From positions 1-9,015 of the IMG/VR virus record IMGVR_UViG_2563366903_000010: a stretch of 9,015 bases of DNA; one strand, written 5' to 3'. This DNA is from a virus (taxonomy: Duplodnaviria; Heunggongvirae; Uroviricota; Caudoviricetes). Under the pieces are notes generated by a model. The model was not told the DNA's origin. It did not search any database and worked only from the letters and a program-made list of their open reading frames with translations. The stretch's first letter is position 1, and each line of letters starts with the position of its first letter. Made by a program: the position numbers and the translations under genes. Below are positions 1-9,015 of the stretch, piece by piece.

Positions 1-243
1 TTGCCCTGCCGGACCCTGTGGTCCGGGTGGTCCGGCCTCTCCACGTGGGCCGGTGTCACCTTTCGGCCCCGGCGGTCCGCCCGGGTCACCTTTATCGCCC
101 TTCGGTCCCTGTGGACCTGTTTCTCCCCGTTCTCCCTTTGGCCCCGGCTCACCTTTTGGTCCGACCGCCCCCGTTGCCCCGGCTGGTCCCTGTGCCCCTG
201 TGGCACCCTGTGGACCTGTGTCCCCCTTCTCGCCCGCCGGTCC
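1..243 (-). repeat. Collagen-like Gly-X-Y triplet-repeat coding region inside the tail fibre gene (about 27 triplets, one interruption)
   Basis: Translation gives a continuous GXY pattern from residue 136 to the window edge; the DNA shows 9-bp-periodic GGN-CCN-rich low complexity. Confidence 0.7.
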
Positions 244-648
244 CCGGGCATTCTCTGCCCGTTTCTTCGCTTCCTCTGCACTCGCCGCCGACGCTTCAGC
301 ACGCTTCAGGATTTCCGCTGCCACCGCTTCCAGCTCTGCAAGCGCTTTCGGGTAATACTGCGCCTCATCCTGTTCCATCAGAAATTTATTCAGCGTTCCC
401 GGCTCAGAATCCGCCTTCACCAGAATGTCACCCACATACGACGGGGCGTACCCTTCCGTGTTCAGCGTCACCCGGTACCACCCCGGCTCCACATCAAAAC
501 TGTAACTGCCGGTTTCCCCCGGCTGCCCCTGCGCCACCGTGGTGACTATCACTGTCTCTGTGGTGCGTCGCGCTTTCAGCTCTATGGTGCATCCCGGCAC
601 CGGCTTCCCGGTGCCGTCCTTCAGCACGCCCGATATTCTGACTGTCAT
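1..648 (-). CDS. Phage tail fibre protein, 5' part (ATG at 648..646; gene runs off the window start): N-terminal prophage tail-fibre domain, Ala/Glu-rich helical segment, then collagen-like Gly-X-Y repeats
   Basis: My own minus-strand translation from ATG 648 is open to position 1 (216 codons): [26 protein letters not shown]...[34 protein letters not shown], then [55 protein letters not shown]... SD-like GGGAG 7 nt upstream of the ATG. It is the antisense of the listed plus-strand ORFs at 1..663. Lies directly downstream of J, where lambdoid phages carry the side tail fibre gene. Confidence 0.8.
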
Positions 649-830
649 AGATTTCTCCCATAAAAAAACGCAGTACCGGTTACCCGGTCTGCGCTCAGAG
701 GTATAAATTGTGACTGGCTGGTGTTAAAGGGTGCCGTCAGTCAAAGGCACCCGTGGATAATGTACGATGTCCGGCTTTTGTCGTTTTCCGGCAATCACGA
801 ACAGATGGATGAAACCTCACTATCCACCTG

Positions 831-3800
831 TCACGATGCGGTATCAAAATCGTCTGTATAGGATTTCAGGTAAAACAGAACCGGGTCCGGGATCCGAATT
901 TGACTCGTATCATGAAGTATTGAACCACCCCTGTAAAAAAGCACACCTGCTTCATACCTGAATGTAATTTCAACCCGCGCATCACCCTGTCCGGCAGGAA
1001 TACCCCATGAGCCTGACGCACTTCCGCCAACATCAGAATATACCGGCTCATATCTGCTGGCGTTTTTGGAAATCTGGACCTCCCGCTCCCCGGTTTTGAC
1101 TTTGCCTGACCTGGCATGAACGACAACTTTGTCATTTATCTTCATGATGAATTCACCTCTGGAAAATGAATACGCCATAAGCATAAGCTTGCGATCAAAC
1201 GGCATGTTGTCTTTCAGCAAAATCATTTTCTGAAAAGTCAGCTGGTTCTGAGTCATTACGCCCTGCCCCATATCAACCGTGTATCCCTTGACGATATCAC
1301 CAATGATTCGGTCAGCGCTCATCGTTCCATTAATGGTGCAGTCTTCCGCAATCGTCACGTTATTCAGTACCCCGGCACTGGCCGTTATCGTCCCGCTGAT
1401 ATCGGCATTACGGGCCGTCAGCCTGCCGTCCGGCGTCAGGGAGAATGCCGGGGGATTGCCGCCACTGGTAATGGTGGGGGCGGTGAGCGTCTTTATCAGC
1501 GCCTCATTGATAAAGGTCTGTCCACCCTGCGTAACCAGAGCCGGTGTGGTGTTACCATTTTCCGGGTTAATGAATGCCACGCGGTCCGCTGCCAGCAGTA
1601 TCTGGCTCTGCACCCCTTCATCCGTATTCTCAATGCCTGCACCAATACCGGCAATATAAAGGCGTCCGTCCTGCATCTGCTGTAGCTTCACCGCCCACAT
1701 GCTGTTCAGGTCATTATTTGTGTCCGTCTGCACACGCTGGATTTGCTGTATGGTGGCGTTCTGGTCCTCCAGCGTTTTACTGACCGTCTGCGTGATTTCA
1801 TTGCGGGTTTCTGTGATGGTGGTCTGCATTTCCGCCATCTCGTCCTTCAGCTGACTGTTGTCAATCTCTGCCCACAGCGCCTCTGCCAGATGCGTTTTTC
1901 CTATCTTTTCCCGGAAAAGTTCCAGATAGCCCGCAGCATCATTGCTCGCCCGTCCACTGGCTTCCACAAAAGCAGATTTACCCACCAGGTTGACGCTGCG
2001 CACATAAAACCAGAAATCCTTTCCGGGCTTAATGTGCGGACCGGAGACACTCCACTGACTGCCGGTCCCCAGATAACGGGCAGAGGTTTCCACCTGTGCG
2101 GCGTCTGCAATTTTTGCCTCCGAAAACCAGAACTCAAACTGCACCGTCGGGTCATAAATGGTCAGTTTCGGGACTGCCGTTATCTGAAAATACCCCGGCG
2201 TCAGTTCAACACCGGCAGGCGCTGCCGGTGCGTTAATCCGGAACGTGGTGGTGGCGGGTTCGCCCTGCTGGCCATAGCTGTTAATCGCCCTGACCGTCAG
2301 GGTGTATTCCCCGAGAGGCAGGCCACTGAAACGGTGCTCCGTACCGGCAGTGATGGCGGTGGTCAGCAGGCGGCTGTTCTCACCGCTTCCACTGGTCAGG
2401 CGCAGACTGAAGCGCACGCCCTTCACCACCCTCGGCGTGTCCCATTTCGCCAGCGCCAGATACTGACTGTCAGCTGCGCTCACCTCCACCGTCAGGTGCT
2501 GCACTGCCGGTGGGATAACGCTGTTCAGGGTGCCTGACTGCGGCTCAAAGCGGGCCCCGTTATCCACGATGGCTTCTTTTTCCGGTACGTGCTGCACCGC
2601 CGTAACGGCAAAGGTGCCGTCCGTGTTTTCCCGGATGGCCACACAGCGGAACAGGCGACGGCGAAGACCGGGCATTTTCAGTCCCCATACCCCGTATGTC
2701 TCCACGCCATCCGGCAGGGGGCTGACCTGTATCCGGTCAGGCGCAGGGTGTGCGGTAATGTCCACACTCACCGGCTTACCGCTGCCGTTAATCAGGTTCA
2801 CCGTCGATGTCCCCGTCTCCGGGAGTGTCACCTCACGGTCCAGCGTCAGGGTACGGCTGGCGGCATCGATGGCCAGAATGCGTCCGCCGGTCAGGGTCCC
2901 GGCGTAGTCGTTATCACAGATTTCAATGATGTCACCCGGCGTGTGACGCAGCCCCTGTGACCCGAGCGTGAAATCCACCGTCTGTGTTTCCAGCAGTTCC
3001 GTCTTTATCACCCACAGCCCGGCACGGTGAGCCTGACCGCGACTGGTGCAGCCGAACGCGTCCATCTTCAGCAGGTTGCGTCCGTAGCGCAGTATGGCTT
3101 CCGGGTCTTCCACCAGTTCCGTGGAGGTCTGCCAGCCGTTCTGCGGGTCGGTGTAATTCACCTCCACCGCCGTGTGCCGGTCCTTCAGGGCACTGAAGCT
3201 GTAGCGGAACCCCACGCCGTTATCATCCACCACCACATCGCTGTTGGTGTACGGCCACACCACATCCGACGGGCGGTCCTGAACGAACGTCAGCGTCTGG
3301 CCGTTCCATACCGGCATACAGCGCATCGCCGAGCAGAAATCACTGAGCACGTCCCATGCCTTACGCTGTTGTGCCAGGTACGCATTAAAGGTCATCCGCG
3401 GCTCTGTGCCCCCGAAACCATCCGGGACCGTCTGGTCGCAGTACTGCCCGATGGCATACAGCGCCCACTTGTCCACATCCGCCGCCCCCAGACGTTTTCC
3501 CATGCCGTAGCGCGGGTGAGTCAGCATGTCCCACAGGCACCAGGCCGGGTTGTTGCTGTATGCCGGTTTCAGACTGCCGTCCCAGATACCACTGTACGTG
3601 CGTTTTTCCGGGTCATAGTTTGACGGCACCTGGATGATGCGACCGCGGATATGGTAGTTCACCGTCATCTGCTGGCCGCCGAACTGCTCCGCATCCACCT
3701 GCAGCCCCACAATGGCCGTGTTCGGGTAGCACTGTTTCACATCGATGATTTCGGTGTATGACGACCAGAGCGTCTTATTCTGCAGCTGGTCCGTGGTGCT

Positions 3801-4361
3801 GTCCGCCGTCTCCCTGACCATCCGGATGTTAAAGGGGCGGGGAGGCAGATTATCCAGAATCACCGACGCAAGGAACTGTGAGGTGGTCTTGCCGTTAATG
3901 GTGACATCCTTTTCCGTCACCCAGTTACCGTTACGCTGTAACTGAATCAGCAGACGGACAGAGGACGGATTACGGTCACCCTTTGACGTGGTCTCCACCA
4001 GTGACTGCACCCCGAAGGTCACCCGCAGGCGGTCAATGTTCGCTGACGTAATGGTGCGTGTCACCGGTTTTGCCCTGGTCACTTCCACACCCAGTACAGT
4101 TTCAGAGCCGGAGGACTCAAAGCCTTCCGGTGGTGTCTGCTCCTGCTCCCCGGCGCGCCAGACCGCGGTCACACCGTGTATCACGGGATTACCGTCCGTG
4201 TCCGTCAGCGGGGTTTTGTTCACCAGAATACTCTGCAGGCCTTTCACCGGACCTTCAATGGGTCCCTCACCAATCGCATCAATCACGCTCATCATCTGCG
4301 TGGATTTGAGGTTGTCTTTCGCCTCACGCGGTGTGTGCGCCCTGCCGCCACCTTTGCCCAT
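831..4361 (-). CDS. J: Tail tip central fibre / host specificity protein J (1176 aa)
   Basis: ORF-track protein starts MGKGGGRAHTPREAKDNLKSTQMMSVIDAIGEGPIEGP, near-identical in pattern to the remembered lambda J N-terminus (MGKGSSKGHTPREAKDNLKST...), and tracks lambda J through most of its length (e.g. NPPAFSLTPDGRLTARNADISG, NVTIAEDCTINGT). Only the last ~150 aa differ. RBS AAGAGGTGA upstream of the ATG. Confidence 0.95.
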   Translation of the reverse strand: MGKGGGRAHTPREAKDNLKSTQMMSVIDAIGEGPIEGPVKGLQSILVNKTPLTDTDGNPVIHGVTAVWRAGEQEQTPPEGFESSGSETVLGVEVTRAKPVTRTITSANIDRLRVTFGVQSLVETTSKGDRNPSSVRLLIQLQRNGNWVTEKDVTINGKTTSQFLASVILDNLPPRPFNIRMVRETADSTTDQLQNKTLWSSYTEIIDVKQCYPNTAIVGLQVDAEQFGGQQMTVNYHIRGRIIQVPSNYDPEKRTYSGIWDGSLKPAYSNNPAWCLWDMLTHPRYGMGKRLGAADVDKWALYAIGQYCDQTVPDGFGGTEPRMTFNAYLAQQRKAWDVLSDFCSAMRCMPVWNGQTLTFVQDRPSDVVWPYTNSDVVVDDNGVGFRYSFSALKDRHTAVEVNYTDPQNGWQTSTELVEDPEAILRYGRNLLKMDAFGCTSRGQAHRAGLWVIKTELLETQTVDFTLGSQGLRHTPGDIIEICDNDYAGTLTGGRILAIDAASRTLTLDREVTLPETGTSTVNLINGSGKPVSVDITAHPAPDRIQVSPLPDGVETYGVWGLKMPGLRRRLFRCVAIRENTDGTFAVTAVQHVPEKEAIVDNGARFEPQSGTLNSVIPPAVQHLTVEVSAADSQYLALAKWDTPRVVKGVRFSLRLTSGSGENSRLLTTAITAGTEHRFSGLPLGEYTLTVRAINSYGQQGEPATTTFRINAPAAPAGVELTPGYFQITAVPKLTIYDPTVQFEFWFSEAKIADAAQVETSARYLGTGSQWSVSGPHIKPGKDFWFYVRSVNLVGKSAFVEASGRASNDAAGYLELFREKIGKTHLAEALWAEIDNSQLKDEMAEMQTTITETRNEITQTVSKTLEDQNATIQQIQRVQTDTNNDLNSMWAVKLQQMQDGRLYIAGIGAGIENTDEGVQSQILLAADRVAFINPENGNTTPALVTQGGQTFINEALIKTLTAPTITSGGNPPAFSLTPDGRLTARNADISGTITASAGVLNNVTIAEDCTINGTMSADRIIGDIVKGYTVDMGQGVMTQNQLTFQKMILLKDNMPFDRKLMLMAYSFSRGEFIMKINDKVVVHARSGKVKTGEREVQISKNASRYEPVYSDVGGSASGSWGIPAGQGDARVEITFRYEAGVLFYRGGSILHDTSQIRIPDPVLFYLKSYTDDFDTAS

Positions 4362-4390
4362 TACATCACCTCTTACCGTGATAATTGTTC

Positions 4391-4426
4391 ACTCACAAAA
4401 ACAACAGGCACCTCACCGGGTGCCTG
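4391..4426 (-). terminator. Intrinsic terminator-like hairpin, minus-strand orientation, just upstream of the J ribosome-binding site
   Basis: Stem CAGGCACC (4405-4412) / GGTGCCTG (4419-4426), 6-nt loop; on the minus-strand RNA the stem is followed by UUGUUUUUGU. Confidence 0.5.
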
Positions 4427-4464
4427 CGTCATGACGGAATAAAATTTCTGAATATCTTCACATT

Positions 4465-4492
4465 TTCACACACTGACTGTGGCGCTTATAAT
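4465..4492 (+). promoter_or_regulatory. Near-consensus sigma70 promoter on the plus strand (antisense to the tail operon)
   Basis: -35 TTCACA (4465-4470), 16-bp spacer, -10 TATAAT (4487-4492); AT-rich upstream tract aaaatttctgaatatcttca; predicted start near 4499. Confidence 0.55.
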
Positions 4493-4498
4493 TTCGCT

Positions 4499-4597
4499 GC
4501 GTTAGTTTTTTTTTGCCCGAGTAACAAAAACAACTCCTTAACATTAATCTTCATTTGTCTGTCCCCGCAGCTCCGCGATCACTGCGGGATTTTTTTA
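4499..4597 (+). ncRNA. Candidate small RNA (~100 nt) in the I-J intergenic spacer, opposite strand to the tail genes
   Basis: Bounded by the promoter at 4465-4492 and a plus-strand intrinsic terminator (stem CCCGCAG 4564-4570 / CTGCGGG 4582-4588, then AUUUUUUUAUGUUUUAU). No ATG with a ribosome-binding site inside. Contains a CA-rich stretch GUAACAAAAACAACUCCUUAACAUUAAUC. Confidence 0.45.
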
Positions 4598-4601
4598 TGT
4601 T
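4563..4601 (+). terminator. Rho-independent terminator, plus-strand orientation
   Basis: 7-bp GC-rich stem with 11-nt loop followed by a T7 run (4590-4597); abuts the stop codon of I on the other strand. Confidence 0.6.
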
Positions 4602-5282
4602 TTATCCCTGTCGACCAATAACCACCACCTTTCCGCCCCCGCCTTCATCACGGGTGCTGATGTCCTGAGAGATACGTCGTGAACCAACCAGCATTTCCCC
4701 GTAAGGCACCGGCATCGGGTTGCCCTGGGCAATCATGTTATCCAGTGACGAAAAATACGTGTTCTGTCTGCCGTTATCCGTTGCGCGGTAATCCGGTGTT
4801 TTTGCCTTCGGGGCCAGCATCTGGGCCACACCACCCAGAATCATGCTGGCTCCAAGTGAAAACAGCATCGTGGTGGCAGAAAAACCACCGGCTGCCAGGG
4901 CTGAACCCCATAACGCCATCGTGGCTCCGGCAGTGAAGAAAGAGCCCACGATGGCCGCCGCCCCCAGCACAATCTGCAGTCCGCCCTTTCCGGCACCGGC
5001 CAGTCGCGGCACAATATGGATGACCGTTCCCTCACCCAGTGGTTCGTGAAGGCGGGCATACACCGCCTCCGGTGCCGTGTCATCACCGGCAATACGTATC
5101 TGGTACCAGCCTTCGTTCATCTGACGGCGAAAGCCCGGCACCTGCAGCGACAGGGCACGGATGGCTTCCGCCGCCGTGTTCACATACAGGCTGAAGCGGC
5201 GGCCAAATCGTTGTAAATCCCCGTGAAGGCAGATGTGTGCCAGTGGCGGTGACGCCAGACAGAATGCGTTCGTCGTTGCCAT
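4602..5282 (-). CDS. I: Tail tip assembly protein I (226 aa)
   Basis: N-terminus MATTNAFCLASPPLAHICLHGDLQRFGRR matches the remembered lambda I (MAATHTLPLASPGMARICLYGDLQRFGRR); Gly/Ala-rich hydrophobic middle and C-terminal QNTYFSSLDNM..QGN...PV.YGEM.VGSR as in lambda I. Confidence 0.9.
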   Translation of the reverse strand: MATTNAFCLASPPLAHICLHGDLQRFGRRFSLYVNTAAEAIRALSLQVPGFRRQMNEGWYQIRIAGDDTAPEAVYARLHEPLGEGTVIHIVPRLAGAGKGGLQIVLGAAAIVGSFFTAGATMALWGSALAAGGFSATTMLFSLGASMILGGVAQMLAPKAKTPDYRATDNGRQNTYFSSLDNMIAQGNPMPVPYGEMLVGSRRISQDISTRDEGGGGKVVVIGRQG

Positions 5283-5917
5283 TTTTCGGAATACCTCTCC
5301 CGTTTACTCAGTTGTTCAGGCAGATGGTGAAGCAGTTCACCGTTGCCGCAGTAAATGGCGGCATGATTAGCCACCGATGCGCCGAAGCAGCACAGCAGGA
5401 TATCGCCCGGCAGTGCAGAGGACAGGGGCACCCGGTAAAAGCCCGTTGCCTCCATATTGTCCAGGTAAAGGTTCTGACCGTTGCACCACCAGTCATCCTC
5501 ACGGTGAAAATCCGGCATATCAATGCCTGCCAGATGGTATGCATCCCGGAACAGCGTGTAACAGTCCGTCACCCCGTGCGCAAAGCGCCGTCCGGTCAGG
5601 TGCGGAACGCAGCGGAATTTGTGAATGTCACCCCGGCAGACCAGCCACCAGGGCAGGGCACTTTTTATCTGCAGTCGCCGGTCTGCCTCACTCAGCCAGG
5701 GCAGACCACCGGGATGACTGTGGACCAGCGCCACAATCTCACCCTGCATCTCCGCCCGCAGCCAGTCTTCCGGGGCAATACGAAAATACGCCTCCGGCGC
5801 TGCGGAGATATTCACACAGGGCAGGTACCGCTCGCCCTCCGTCGTGGTTATCACGAAGCCGCACGACTCCGCAGGCGCACACCGCCGGGCATGCGCCAAT
5901 ATATTGCTATAGAGCAT
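5180..5917 (-). CDS. K: Tail tip assembly protein K (245 aa), JAMM/MPN-type and NlpC/P60-like motifs
   Basis: Contains HSHPGGLPWLSEAD, an exact HxHx7Sx2D JAMM motif, and a downstream Cys/His segment (DCYTLFRDAYH ... HH) as in lambda K-family proteins. Strong RBS AGGAG 6 nt before the ATG at 5917. 3' end overlaps the I start by 103 nt in another frame. Confidence 0.85.
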   Translation of the reverse strand: MLYSNILAHARRCAPAESCGFVITTTEGERYLPCVNISAAPEAYFRIAPEDWLRAEMQGEIVALVHSHPGGLPWLSEADRRLQIKSALPWWLVCRGDIHKFRCVPHLTGRRFAHGVTDCYTLFRDAYHLAGIDMPDFHREDDWWCNGQNLYLDNMEATGFYRVPLSSALPGDILLCCFGASVANHAAIYCGNGELLHHLPEQLSKRERYSEKWQRRTHSVWRHRHWHTSAFTGIYNDLAAASACM

Positions 5918-5930
5918 GAGAACTCCTGAT

Positions 5931-5958
5931 AAAAAACCCAGCCGAAGCTGGGTTTGTT
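5931..5958 (-). terminator. Rho-independent terminator (usable in both directions; strongest for the minus strand) ending the antirepressor-like gene, 14 nt upstream of the K start
   Basis: AAAAAA (5931-5936), stem CCCAGC (5937-5942), loop CGAA, stem GCTGGG (5947-5952), then TTTGTT. Minus-strand RNA reads hairpin + UUUUUU. Confidence 0.7.
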
Positions 5959-5971
5959 AAGTTGTCAATTG

Positions 5972-6886
5972 TCAGTAGCGATGCAGTGAAGGCGGCAACT
6001 CTTTGTTCTTAAGCCTTTCCCATGCCAGAAGGTTCGTCGGCCCGTCAGGCTCATAAATATCTATATCCCGCGTGTGATTAATTAAAACGCCCCTCGCCCT
6101 CCCGATGGTATACGAGAACTCATAGCCGTAGTCGTGGCATATGCCGGAATAGCCAGACTGAATCAGTTTTAATGCGGGATACAACTCACGGAACAATGCC
6201 TGTGAGCGGTTAGCATAATCCCATAGCCATACAAGGCTGTTTGCTTCTTTTGCGGAAAGCTCGTTGGTGCTCTTCTCTTGTTTGCCGATTAACTCTCCTT
6301 CAAGCGGAACGCGAGCAGCAAGTGACAGAGCTTCGGTAAACTGCTCCTCGCTGATTTCTTTGTACGAACATCCAAAATGTGATTTCAGTGACGACCACAT
6401 GGTGATCATCGCCTTCGCCTGTTTTTCCTTTGGCAGAGACTGACCGCGACTCATGACGAGTTGTTTAATGGCTTCCTGCTGTTCAGTAGTGATTTTCCCC
6501 GGCAACGCCTTTTTAGCTTTCAGTGTATTTCCGTAAGACCCCGTTTTACGAATGGATGGCAAAACTTCAGCTGTCACCCATTTGCGGAATTTGTGCGGGA
6601 CTGAACCTTTATTGACGGCATCGCGGCAACGCAGAACCAATGTATACATACCTGATTCGCTCACAATGCTTAAATTCTGCTCACCACCAAGGGTGTAACT
6701 TAAAGTTACTCCCTTTTCATCGTCATCAAGTGCAGTAAGCGCCTTGCGTGAGTTAGTCAGATTTAAAGCATCACAAACATCTTTTGCTACAAACCACGGC
6801 TCACCGCACTTGTTGATGACGCGGATTTCACTGTCGCCGAATTTGAAGATGGTGAAATCGTTTTGTGCCTTTGCTATACTTTTCAT
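5972..6886 (-). CDS. Bro-N domain phage antirepressor-like protein (304 aa), Ant-like by position downstream of the Arc-like gene
   Basis: N-terminal region [76 protein letters not shown] matches the Bro-N pattern; the C-terminal ~150 aa are unassigned. RBS AGGAAA 7 nt upstream of the ATG. Same size class as P22 Ant (~300 aa). Confidence 0.8.
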
Positions 6887-6918
6887 GTCAATATTTCCTA
6901 ATCCGATTTGTTGATACC

Positions 6919-6950
6919 GAAGCCCTGACTGTTACAGCAGTTGGGGCTTC
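6919..6950 (-). other. Intercistronic stem-loop overlapping the Arc-like stop codon, between the Arc-like and antirepressor-like genes
   Basis: GAAGCCC (6919-6925) / GGGCTTC (6944-6950) with an 18-nt loop. On the plus strand it is followed by AACTTTTTAG; on the minus-strand mRNA there is no U tract, so it is not a canonical terminator there. Confidence 0.3.
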
Positions 6951-7089
6951 AACTTTTTAGGCTGCGAATAAGACGCTGCACTATTTCTGAATTTAAAGAC
7001 CTGCCCTCCTCCTTAGCCTTTTCCTTCAATTTTTCTTTAATCTCTGGCGGGATACGAATCCCTAATGGAGCGATATCTCTAACTTTCAT
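6949..7089 (-). CDS. arc: Arc-like ribbon-helix-helix transcriptional repressor (46 aa from ATG 7089)
   Basis: MKVRDIAPLGIRIPPEIKEKLKEKAKEEGRSLNSEIVQRLIRSLKS; the GRS(L/V)NSEI core and overall layout match remembered P22 Arc (…EENGRSVNSEIYQRVMESFK…). The listed 87-aa ORF starts at a TTG and would cover the promoter region, so the internal ATG is preferred. Confidence 0.7.
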   Translation of the reverse strand: MKVRDIAPLGIRIPPEIKEKLKEKAKEEGRSLNSEIVQRLIRSLKS

Positions 7090-7121
7090 TTCTTTCCCAA
7101 TTGCTACACCGTGATAACTAA

Positions 7122-7149
7122 ATACTACACCGTGCTTATTTAAAGTCAA
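7122..7149 (-). promoter_or_regulatory. Sigma70-like promoter for the Arc-like/antirepressor-like operon
   Basis: On the minus strand: -35 TTGACT (7149..7144), 16-bp spacer, -10 TAGTAT (7127..7122); predicted start near 7115. The -10 overlaps repeat copy 2. Confidence 0.5.
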
Positions 7150-7167
7150 AGTTTTTTTGCCTACACT
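7139..7167 (+). promoter_or_regulatory. Possible promoter for the Mnt-like operon (weak match)
   Basis: -35 TTTAAA (7139-7144), 17-bp spacer, -10 TACACT (7162-7167), overlapping the 13-bp palindrome; placed back-to-back with the minus-strand -35. Confidence 0.3.
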
Positions 7168-7199
7168 GTGTAGCAATGCTACAGCGTGCAGGAGGAAAA

Positions 7200-7448
7200 A
7201 TGAAAGGTGCAAGAGATATCAGTCCCTTGGGAATTAGGATTCCAGACTATTTAAAGAAACGCATTCAGCAGGAAGCGGATAAAAACGGCAGATCAATGAA
7301 CTCAGAGATTGTGCTTATCCTTCAAAAACATGTTGATAATCTTGATGGCCCTCGCTCACTTGAAGGATTCGCTAACCAAGAAGCTGACAAATTCAAAGAG
7401 GCGCTGCTTGAGACGCTAAAGACCATGTATGGTAAGGATGAAAAATAA
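7200..7448 (+). CDS. mnt: Mnt-like ribbon-helix-helix repressor (82 aa from ATG 7200)
   Basis: MKGARDISPLGIRIPDYLKKRIQQEADKNGRSMNSEIVLILQ...FANQEADKFKEALLETLKTMYGKDEK. Same length as P22 Mnt (82 aa), with matching ARD, NGRSMNSE and C-terminal ...TLK..Y.K blocks. GGAGG 4 nt before the ATG at 7200; the listed 90-aa ORF starts 8 codons earlier with no RBS. Confidence 0.8.
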   Translation: MKGARDISPLGIRIPDYLKKRIQQEADKNGRSMNSEIVLILQKHVDNLDGPRSLEGFANQEADKFKEALLETLKTMYGKDEK

Positions 7449-7984
7449 TGCTGCACACAATTCATTTCTTATGCCCCGTTAACACTGCCACTGTTGGGCA
7501 ACTTCAGAACCACTGTCTCACCGCATTATCTCAAGGCGCAACTGAATTAAATATCCATATATCAAGTCAGGGAGGGGAAACTGCCGCTGGCTTTACTGCG
7601 TATAACTTTCTTAAGTCACTCCCTGTTACCGTTAGAACTCACAACATAAGCAATGTTGAATCCATAGCTAATATCGTTTTCCTGGCTGGCTCAGAACGTT
7701 TCGCAAACCCATTATCAAGATTCCTGTTACATCCTCTATTATGGGTCTTTGCCACCCCAGCCGCCGACCATGCCAGATTGAGAGAGTACGGGAAATGCCT
7801 CGATAACGATCTTGATCGCTTCGTTGAGACGTTCAATATCGACATCGGAACCCATATTAGGTGGGCATCCCTGATAGCAGACTCGACCATTTTGGATGCT
7901 AACAAGGCTCTTGAGCATGGCATAATTAATTCCATAAAAACTGCAAGGCTGGTATCCAATCAGGCAAACTGGTGGGTTGTTTGA
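7448..7984 (+). CDS. ClpP-fold (S14-like) putative Ser-His-Asp serine protease, 178 aa, lacking the ClpP N-terminal segment
   Basis: By-eye alignment to E. coli ClpP: LNIHISSQGGETAAG vs IYLYINSPGGVITAG; NVESIANIVFLAG vs GQAASMGAFLLTAG (Ser retained); LLHP vs MIHQP (His retained); LIADS vs TERDRF (Asp retained); EHGIINSI vs EYGLVDSI. The start ATG overlaps the Mnt-like stop (TAATG) with AAGGA upstream, indicating translational coupling. Confidence 0.75.
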   Translation: MLHTIHFLCPVNTATVGQLQNHCLTALSQGATELNIHISSQGGETAAGFTAYNFLKSLPVTVRTHNISNVESIANIVFLAGSERFANPLSRFLLHPLLWVFATPAADHARLREYGKCLDNDLDRFVETFNIDIGTHIRWASLIADSTILDANKALEHGIINSIKTARLVSNQANWWVV

Positions 7985-8009
7985 TGGGTAAATCATGATT
8001 GCTCCTTAT

Positions 8010-8031
8010 AAAAAAACCACCTGACGGTGGG
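8010..8031 (-). terminator. Intrinsic terminator-like hairpin immediately downstream of L (minus orientation)
   Basis: A7 run (8010-8016), stem CCACC (8017-8021), loop TGAC, stem GGTGG (8026-8030); minus-strand RNA reads hairpin + UUUUUUU. On the plus strand there is no U tract after it. Confidence 0.5.
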
Positions 8032-8040
8032 CATAATCCA

Positions 8041-8739
8041 TTACTGCGAAAGTTTATTAATGGAAAGGAAACCGCCAAAATTGCCGACATTCCTGCGCAG
8101 TTCACACCCGCGCATGCACTTGCTGCATCTGTCCTTACGGATATCGGTGGTGGGTTTATCGAACTCATCCGCCACAGCCCCGCCCGTGTAACCACACTCA
8201 TCAGAGCGGTAAGTCCACATACAGGTATTCGCCAGCATAATGCGACCGGGAAACAGCGCCCCGTCCGTCTCGGTCGGTGTGGCCAGCACAAACGAGGCCG
8301 TCATGGCTGTGAGCTGCGACATCTGCTCCACCACCCAGCGGTCCGTCAGCTCCTGCTCCGGGTCAGCCTCCGGATTGCCTGCCACAAAATTCACCGCATC
8401 CAGAAAACGCGCATACACCCGGCGACGAACCACCGTGGCCCCCACCAGGCTCTGCAAATCCTCCGCCATCCCGGTGACCAGCCCGAACAGATTCGACACC
8501 GTCAGTGACGGGCGGGCACTGCTCCCTTTCCCGTTCATCTCAAAGCCGCTGCCGTCAATCGGGTATGCCTGGTACTTCCGCCCCTGCCAGGTGACCGGCT
8601 CCCCTTTTTCATTCAGCTCATTACAGAAAAAATACCGCTCACCGCCCTGTACCGTCAGGTCGATTTCCCAGAGTACCACCCGCGGTGACTGCTCTGATTT
8701 AATCGACTCATTCAGGCTTTCTTCGTTGATCTCCTGCAT
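8041..8739 (-). CDS. L: Tail tip protein L (232 aa from ATG 8739)
   Basis: MQEINEESLNE...VVLWEIDLT..GGERYFFCNE.NEKGEPVTWQGR.YQ.YPI.GSGFE.NGKG...FLSINKLSQ matches remembered lambda L along its full length, including the C-terminus. The listed 250-aa ORF adds 18 N-terminal codons that run through a terminator hairpin and are rejected. Confidence 0.9.
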   Translation of the reverse strand: MQEINEESLNESIKSEQSPRVVLWEIDLTVQGGERYFFCNELNEKGEPVTWQGRKYQAYPIDGSGFEMNGKGSSARPSLTVSNLFGLVTGMAEDLQSLVGATVVRRRVYARFLDAVNFVAGNPEADPEQELTDRWVVEQMSQLTAMTASFVLATPTETDGALFPGRIMLANTCMWTYRSDECGYTGGAVADEFDKPTTDIRKDRCSKCMRGCELRRNVGNFGGFLSINKLSQ

Positions 8740-8752
8740 AAACATCCACCCA

Positions 8753-8777
8753 TAAAAAAAGGGGCGCAATGCGCCCC
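8753..8777 (-). terminator. Rho-independent terminator (minus orientation) ending about 14 nt upstream of the L start codon
   Basis: Stem GGGGCGC (8761-8767), loop AAT, stem GCGCCCC (8771-8777), with an A7 run at 8754-8760 on the plus strand, i.e. hairpin + UUUUUUU on the minus-strand RNA. Confidence 0.65.
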
Positions 8778-8835
8778 TGATAAAATAGTTCAATTAAAAA
8801 ATCAAAAACGATGAAGGTAATAAAATGAAAATTAA

Positions 8836-8852
8836 ATCAGCTAATAGCTGAT
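8836..8852. repeat. Perfect 17-bp palindrome ATCAGCTA-A-TAGCTGAT
   Basis: Read directly from the sequence; intergenic between the porin gene and L. Candidate protein-binding site. Confidence 0.5.
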
Positions 8853-8861
8853 CGCAGTGAC

Positions 8862-8916
8862 CAGTGGAAATATAACTTCCACTGATACAGGCCATCTGTG
8901 AGGGCAGATGGCCTGT
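8862..8916. other. Two adjacent stem-loops just downstream of the porin stop codon
   Basis: CAGTGGAA (8862-8869) / TTCCACTG (8877-8884), and ACAGGCCATCTG (8887-8898) / CAGATGGCCTGT (8905-8916). The second is followed by TATTTATTT on the plus strand. Confidence 0.4.
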
Positions 8917-8935
8917 ATTTATTTACCAGTAATCA

Positions 8936-9015
8936 TCAGAACTGATAAGTCATACCAACAGCAACGATATCATCCGTTGCAATGCCCGCATCCCTGGTAA
9001 ACTTATTCTCATCAA
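8936..9015 (-). CDS. 3' end of an OmpC/NmpC-family general porin gene (C-terminal 25 codons plus stop; gene continues beyond the window end)
   Basis: Minus-strand translation ...DENKFTRDAGIATDDIVAVGMTYQF-stop. The terminal ...VA.G..YQF with aromatic C-terminus and the preceding D.N.FTRDAGI.TD.IVA pattern match remembered enterobacterial porin C-termini (OmpC ...[24 protein letters not shown]). Confidence 0.6.
   Translation of the reverse strand, partial: DENKFTRDAGIATDDIVAVGMTYQF

Follow-up and report, generated by a model that had tools for sequence, protein, structure and literature searches.

A promoter-terminator unit assigned to the PasB/EcOnc22-24 small RNA family in the tail operon of a lambdoid E. 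coli prophage

Described prophage sRNAs and the I-J spacer

PasB (E2348CN_0006; 'pathogenicity-associated sRNA B') is an Hfq-dependent small RNA (sRNA) of 83 nt in prophage PP6 of the EPEC strain E2348/69, annotated between E2348C_1436 and E2348C_1437 on the minus strand of NC_011601.1, from 1466343 to 1466261 (Pearl Mizrahi et al. 2021, PMC8550237 Table S6). Northern blots, for which the probe was AATCCCGCAGTGATCGCGGAGCT (Table S6), confirmed its size and Hfq-dependent stability in E2348/69, and its expression was higher under the non-activating condition (PMC8550237). The part of Table S2 that carries pasB gives log2 fold changes of -6.79 and -2.39, which, from the main text of the same paper, we infer to compare delta-hfq with wild type. 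Among the Pas sRNAs, PasB has the widest distribution and the most stable synteny, is often the sole one in EAEC, ETEC and non-pathotype strains, and ranges over Escherichia and Shigella (Zhu, Shabalina and Storz, bioRxiv 10.64898/2026.05.13.724894). In O157:H7 Sakai, EcOnc22, EcOnc23 and EcOnc24 were reported as plus-strand Hfq-CRAC peaks in prophages Sp15, Sp14 and Sp11; EcOnc22 ran at ~85 nt on a northern blot and was destabilised in delta-hfq (Tree et al. 2014, PMC4104026 Table S2).

The window analysed here is a stretch of 9,015 nt (IMG/VR record IMGVR_UViG_2563366903_000010, positions 1 to 9,015) from the tail region of a lambdoid E. coli prophage, displayed on the strand opposite its genes. 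E. coli prophages match the whole window at up to 96% identity. The tail genes and the spacer of interest are placed as follows.

831-4361, minus strand: J (ORF list and Pfam GpJ domain)
4362-4601, no strand: I-J intercistronic spacer of the tail operon, 240 bp (ORF list, Pfam and lambda annotation)
4602-5282, minus strand: I (ORF list and Pfam Lambda_tail_I)
5180-5917, minus strand: K (ORF list/Pfam)
8041-8793, minus strand: L (ORF list/Pfam)

The limits of J and I thus set the spacer at 4362-4601; the corresponding spacer of phage lambda is 60 bp, with I ending at 15444 and J starting at 15505 in the lambda annotation. The spacer was matched in 1108 of 5426 complete E. coli genomes, with 100% identity over its whole length in only four of the 5426, and in 147 phage records, mostly Stx-converting phages, at ~78% identity.

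An earlier note on this DNA, made from the letters alone, had proposed a candidate plus-strand sRNA unit between tail genes I and J, and every feature that it named was found in place. It had left identity with a described prophage sRNA to BLAST and Rfam comparison. The first of these gave a clear answer. E2348C_1436 and E2348C_1437 are I and J, and genome search and alignment showed the spacer to be 98.8% identical to that of E2348/69, so that PasB maps to 4514-4596 of the window, with 81 of 83 positions identical (97.6%). The reverse complement of the PasB probe has a single match in the window, at 4569-4591, with zero mismatches. Rfam was less informative: neither the gathering threshold nor E<=10 yielded a family for the spacer RNA, the identification having come from the E2348/69 alignment and the literature, and the only matches of the spacer were sub-threshold and at chance level (Ref84, Hrs1, Trp_leader and STnc100). 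RefSeq annotates no feature in the spacer. A scan of genome contigs for the gapped pattern ATCTTCAT-N8-12-CCCGCAGCTCC gave, among the matches listed, chance matches only (Micromonospora and assorted MAGs).

The likeness to PasB of E2348/69 extends to the I-J position, the strand relative to the operon, the promoter and the terminator. Two of the differences are substitutions within the predicted seed: the window has A where E2348/69 has C at 4540 (PasB nt 27), and A where it has G at 4546 (nt 33). A third change falls in the 5' U-run, ahead of the annotated end.

The Sakai RNAs belong to the same family. In the current Sakai record, the coordinates of EcOnc22, EcOnc23 and EcOnc24 all fall beside the I-J spacers of Sp15, Sp14 and Sp11; those of Tree et al. 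2014 refer to NC_002695.1 and run ~140 nt below NC_002695.2, as gauged by the stx2B/AsxR distance. In each of the three Sakai spacers, the reverse complement of the EcOnc northern probe falls on the sRNA body, with three differences, and for that reason we assign EcOnc22-24 to the sRNA body. Left uncorrected, the three peaks seem to lie on an upstream hairpin and not on the sRNA (2863-2897, 794-828 and 844-878 of our loci L002, L003 and L004). The Sakai spacers, which carry three identical coexisting copies of the sRNA, align with the window at ~78% identity and share its locus, strand, -35, CUCC core, UUAAUCUUCAU block and terminator stem, but have (ARN)3 in place of (ARN)5, AATAAT for TATAAT, CUCCAU for CUCCUU and another terminator loop. 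On this comparison we regard PasB and EcOnc22/23/24 as one gene family. No link between them appears in the main texts of PMC8550237 and Zhu et al. 2026 or in Table S6, as far as the accessible parts of these sources extend. In the part of Table S6 that covers PasB, the 'EHEC homologue' entry is blank, and the term 'EcOnc' is missing from the main text of Zhu et al. (bioRxiv 10.64898/2026.05.13.724894), so the equivalence seems to be unwritten in those papers.

Other named prophage sRNAs were considered and rejected: HnrS (EcOnc10/11/12) has another locus and is 66 nt long, svsR of prophage NC-SV is an unrelated RNA from the 3' end of cI, and PasA, PasC and PasD are found close to Q and the lysis genes and so are not the I-J spacer RNA.

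Judged by these alignments, the promoter-terminator unit is real but already described, an allele of the PasB/EcOnc22-24 family, and as such the finding is a known one. The recovery of PasB from raw sequence is a useful positive control for a sequence-only scan, because a strong promoter and a terminator in an unexpectedly long intercistronic spacer were enough to flag a real sRNA. The additions made here are modest: the link between PasB and EcOnc22/23/24, a CUCC(U) plus ARN core, a seed that varies between alleles, and the setting aside of a GcvB decoy and of a small protein as readings of the locus.

Promoter, RNA body and terminator

The features of the RNA and of the DNA opposite it are these.

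4465-4492, plus strand: PasB promoter, with -35 TTCACA at 4465-4470, a 16-bp spacer and -10 TATAAT at 4487-4492 (promoter scan)
4499-4513, plus strand: possible 5' extension of the primary transcript, GCGUUAG and a U-run (from the position of the -10)
4514-4596, plus strand: PasB sRNA, 83 nt as annotated in E2348/69 (transferred by alignment)
4520-4534, plus strand: (ARN)5 tract AGUAACAAAAACAAC, likely Hfq distal-face motif (shuffle test)
4534-4560, plus strand: predicted seed region (conservation, and clustering of the pairing with eight RIL-seq target regions)
4564-4596, plus strand: intrinsic terminator with a 7-bp stem, an 11-nt loop and U7 (hairpin scan and folding)
4486-4554, minus strand: 22-codon mini-ORF (MKINVKELFLLLGQKKTNAAKL), judged non-coding (allele comparison)

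The promoter that the earlier note had read on the plus strand was recovered at the same coordinates as the best match in the window. TTCACA-16-TATAAT has 11 of 12 matches and is the sole site above 10/12 in the whole 9 kb; an 11/12 site arises in 5.7% of dinucleotide shuffles of the window. For comparison between alleles, we searched IMG/VR for copies of the locus with an invariant 23-mer, located upstream of the promoter, as the anchor. The 119 loci obtained comprise 59 distinct spacers and 38 distinct sRNA alleles. The -35 is identical in all alleles, a conservation that is partly by construction because the -35 lies near the anchor; the -10 reads TATAAT, AATAAT or TATCAT, always retaining A2 and T6.

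The position of the -10 predicts a start near 4499 and a transcript of ~98 nt. The ~100-nt RNA that the earlier note had expected from about 4499 therefore agrees with the predicted start, but the annotated RNA is 83 nt from 4514, an end that rests on RNA-seq coverage and northern size (PMC8550237). This end lies 22 nt past the -10, compared with the usual ~7, and hence the RNA is processed or the promoter has been assigned incompletely. A ~98-nt primary transcript, begun near 4499, may be trimmed to give the 83-nt species; the U-rich leader would be either removed by processing or under-reported by coverage-based annotation. For the Sakai allele the corresponding figures are ~91 nt predicted from the promoter and ~85 nt on the northern (PMC4104026).

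Two further observations concern this region. A T-run follows the predicted start at 4506-4514, outside the annotated mature RNA; it is T9 here, T-G-T7 in E2348/69 and a shorter T6/T7 elsewhere, and in many alleles a G breaks it up. A highly conserved, A+T-rich block that precedes the PasB -35 holds candidate CRP-like half-sites, TCTGA-N6-TCACA, at 4447-4462 on the plus strand, centred at about -44.5 from the predicted start, with the half-sites retained and the N6 varying between families. The media of the EPEC RIL-seq work were reportedly LB and glucose-containing DMEM.

At the other end of the unit, the strong plus-strand intrinsic terminator placed by the earlier note ~100 nt downstream of the promoter was again found at the same coordinates. 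Its stem pairs CCCGCAG (4564-4570) with CTGCGGG (4582-4588), at -12.6 kcal/mol alone, and T7 comes after it at 4590-4596. Most alleles share the stem unchanged, and in the two most divergent families (L008/L051) another hairpin and U-run are substituted at the same position. RNAalifold on 12 alleles recovered the terminator only, with essentially no covariation, which is uninformative because the stem is nearly invariant. Outside the terminator, PasB is predicted by folding to be largely unstructured.

Within 4499-4596 on the plus strand we saw no AUG or GUG, and the two UUG triplets there lack a Shine-Dalgarno sequence, the first meeting a stop after three codons; the earlier note's view that the transcript has no convincing ORF thus stands. 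The opposite strand deserves more attention. A small protein might be the product of the conserved block, read along the tail-operon strand from an ATG at 4554 (MKINVKELF...); the promoter and terminator on the plus strand would then be incidental. The ATGAAGATTAA block opens the 22-codon ORF from 4554 to 4486, its ATG has GGGGA upstream, the first ~9 codons are alike in several families, and a gene caller annotated a 32-codon CDS there in phage PhiR12_1. We consider this reading highly improbable. The L047, L036/L013/L070 and L008/L051 families lack the ATG, the mini-ORF is thrown out of frame where T/A runs differ in length, and its products, of 10 to more than 30 residues, show no relationship past residue ~10. 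For the homologues, moreover, strand-specific probes detected the plus-strand RNA directly (PMC8550237, PMC4104026). The mini-ORF is not conserved as a protein across families, and the allele comparison indicates that conservation of the block acts at the RNA level. The PhiR12_1 entry, a 32-codon 'hypothetical protein' in the I-J spacer equivalent to the mini-ORF (PV340549.1; our locus L006, 1562-1660, minus strand), is probably an over-call.

What the 38 alleles keep is consistent with an RNA element: the -35, the ARN run, the CUCC core, and a 3' hairpin with a U-run, even where the hairpin sequence has been replaced. Alleles differ in the sequence of the 5' third. In seven of eight allele families, the A-R-N run stands at the same place with three to five triplets (two in the remaining one), and it beats shuffles at p<=0.03 in six of the eight. 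CUCC(U/A/C)U after the ARN run is retained in every family, and UUAAUCUUCAU in most. In one divergent family the CUCC element reads ACCUCCUUA, which we take to be the same as the 3' end of 16S rRNA. From this alignment, the universal core of the divergent alleles is an anti-SD-like CUCC(U) preceded by an ARN tract.

Hfq binding and predicted pairing with mRNAs

The earlier note's stand-alone non-coding sRNA, running from promoter to terminator opposite the tail operon, is borne out by its close homologues, which are transcribed from prophages, detected on northern blots, bound by Hfq and dependent on it for stability (PMC8550237, PMC4104026). In RIL-seq, PasB was ligated on Hfq to many host and virulence mRNAs, in the part of that dataset available (PMC8550237). 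Among the rows listed in Table S3, PasB is always the second RNA of the chimera (PMC8550237), and its 3' ends there, at 1466260/1 (window 4596/4597), coincide with the terminator.

We think it very probable that this prophage pasB allele is expressed from its sigma-70 promoter as an Hfq-dependent, trans-acting sRNA that pairs with start regions through a seed at 4534-4560. The strong promoter at 4465-4492 would drive a short non-coding RNA ending at the terminator at 4564-4596. Hfq would grip this RNA both by its 3' hairpin and U-tail and by the (ARN)5 tract at 4520-4534. The predicted unstructured region 4534-4560, with its CUCCUU and UUAAUCUUCAU, would serve as the seed and occlude the ribosome-binding or start-codon regions of target mRNAs; from the position of the pairing, the most likely consequence would be repression of translation.

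The (ARN)5 tract reads AGU AAC AAA AAC AAC, a run reached by 0 of 500 shuffles. A-R-N repeats are the Hfq distal-face motif, and the motif is present in the CRAC data, within the accessible part of that study (Tree et al. 2014, PMC4104026). In the conserved region that follows, an anti-SD-like CUCCUU lies at 4534-4539, and UUAAUCUUCAU at 4544-4554 is complementary to AUGAAGA-type start regions. Class II Hfq-dependent sRNAs, of the ChiX and MgrR type, were reportedly described by Schu et al. in 2015. PasB resembles them in its ARN tract, its terminator U-tail (U7 here) and its strong Hfq dependence, and these features suggest a class II assignment.

The RIL-seq partners listed for PasB give this reading its candidate targets. 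Under the activating condition, the rows listed include bfpB, bfpI, ler, perB, galE, ftsZ and rplX (PMC8550237 Table S3); under the non-activating condition they include espC, fabR, ffh, ftsZ, glk, gshA, rplX, trmJ and ygeV, together with the 5' UTRs of raiA, tolC and ydbJ and the yrdD-smg junction (PMC8550237). The listed yhhX-PasB pair, from the non-activating condition, has 57 chimeras and an odds ratio of 80 (PMC8550237 Table S3). Several of the listed target sites are 5' UTRs or junctions just upstream of the next start codon.

We then took eight target regions from the RIL-seq rows listed and computed the best local duplex of each with the PasB body; whole-molecule RNAduplex runs, with GcvB and with the yhhX target region, had given meaningless long duplexes, so local or region-restricted duplexes were used. 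The energies summed over the eight targets came to -162.4 kcal/mol, compared with -141.2 +/- 8.1 kcal/mol for dinucleotide-shuffled sRNAs, none of 100 of which did as well, while single targets were mostly no better than shuffles (p 0.04-0.57). Paired positions concentrate at PasB nt 20-47. Predicted pairing spans the tolC start codon (CAAAUGAAGA) and falls at the fabR-yijD junction (AAUGUGAAGGA) and in the ydbJ leader (UGAAGAUCA). From conservation, Zhu et al. placed the PasB seed just upstream of the terminator (bioRxiv 10.64898/2026.05.13.724894), a position that agrees with our predicted cluster.

The seed varies between alleles, that of the window included. Because both window substitutions lie in the predicted seed, the target set may differ from that of E2348/69; in the duplex model, the A at 4540 would break the fabR pairing.

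A different use of the same region had been suggested by the earlier note, which saw in its CA-rich stretch a target for GU-rich seeds such as that of GcvB. On this account PasB is an anti-sRNA like AgvB, its CA-rich stretch mimicking GcvB targets and titrating the GU-rich R1 seed. AgvB sets a precedent for anti-sRNAs from prophages (PMC4104026), and AACAAAAACAAC, rich in C and A, is left single-stranded in the predicted fold of the 83-nt form. The pairing itself gives little encouragement: the best duplex with GcvB R1 is -15.1 kcal/mol, compared with -12.7 +/- 2.7 for shuffles (p 0.18), a value within the shuffle range, whereas AgvB reaches -22.3 (p 0.05). PasB lacks CACAACA, the consensus GcvB target, and the CA-rich insertion is missing from Sakai-type alleles. 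In the part of the RIL-seq lists covered, no gcvB::pasB row stands at the expected alphabetical places or in the sRNA-sRNA block of the activating sheet (PMC8550237 Table S3).

AgvB and AsxR (Rfam RF02702 and RF02703) do share several properties with PasB, being short, prophage-encoded and Hfq-binding, with an ARN-containing 5' part and a rho-independent terminator. They differ in being 51-60 nt long, in lying near the lysis genes and in sequestering GcvB or FnrS. The AgvB genes are downstream of PR', outside the tail operon (PMC4104026), the AgvB sequence, taken from the primer table, is unrelated to that of PasB, and the Rfam models of AgvB and AsxR gave no match at E<=10. Identity with AgvB is ruled out by location, length and sequence. 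A GcvB decoy is thus very unlikely; this reading, hinted at in the earlier note, is largely refuted and can be set aside, and the CA-rich stretch is likely better read as the (ARN)5 Hfq distal-face motif of a trans-acting sRNA.

The I-J junction and the neighbouring prophage genes

The earlier note had called the RNA antisense. This holds for its position, opposite the tail operon, but the word describes position only, because the RNA overlaps the I-J intercistronic spacer and no coding sequence. Its main role might nonetheless be in cis. The RNA has full complementarity to the late mRNA at the I-J junction and could alter expression of the tail-tip protein J, by RNase III cleavage of the paired RNAs or by interference from convergent transcription, when the prophage is induced or when a related lambdoid phage that has this spacer superinfects. 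All allele families, and free phages as well, have the gene in one position opposite the tail operon, the synteny around PasB, embedded as it is in a structural operon, is unusually stable (Zhu et al., bioRxiv 10.64898/2026.05.13.724894), and three identical copies persist side by side in the Sakai prophages. Pairing with the late mRNA, however, was absent from the portion of the data examined, and in the same portion PasB is made in lysogens, when the late genes are switched off, and forms Hfq ligation products with dozens of unlinked mRNAs. No coding sequence lies opposite it, nor any known signal for J translation; the J ribosome-binding site is ~150 nt from the PasB 5' end. Nor does it resemble cis-antisense RNAs of the sar/OOP type, since it lies wholly within the spacer and the only ORF that it overlaps is non-conserved. 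We therefore hold a main role in cis to be unlikely, and prefer action in trans.

Cis and trans action are mutually compatible. A dual-function PasB would act in trans and also pair with the I-J late mRNA, either of its own prophage or of superinfecting relatives with a shared spacer, tuning or blocking synthesis of J, and the seed substitutions of the window allele would retarget it from fabR-yijD and ler; we regard this combination as doubtful. The interest that remains is modest, and lies in the differences in seed between alleles and in a possible cis role at the I-J junction.

Elsewhere in the window, a P22 immI-like module is inserted between L and K, at 5972-7984, and is missing from PP6 of E2348/69, a difference between the two prophages. 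Its members are as follows.

5972-6886, minus strand: ant, with Bro-N and P22_AR_C
6888-6954, plus strand: sar RNA (Rfam RF00262, 69.4 bits)
6949-7212, minus strand: Arc-like gene
7176-7448, plus strand: divergent Mnt/Arc-like RHH gene
7448-7984, plus strand: ClpP-like ORF

One further structure was seen within the spacer itself, on the tail-operon strand and outside PasB.

4404-4427, minus strand: terminator-like hairpin (9 bp, six of them G-C) with UUGUUUUUGUG

A weak Rfam match to STnc100 at 4395-4476 on the minus strand overlaps this hairpin (15.8 bits, E 0.24, gathering threshold 47) and is probably due to chance; genuine STnc100 matches occur near other Pas genes, and a different Rfam set (IsrG and IS009) surrounds PasB (Zhu et al., bioRxiv 10.64898/2026.05.13.724894). 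The hairpin stands immediately upstream of the J ribosome-binding site, and its stem is kept across allele families while the loop varies (TCACCG or CCGGAG). In lysogens it may halt transcription that reads through from moron promoters upstream; alternatively, it may mark the 3' end of an RNA.
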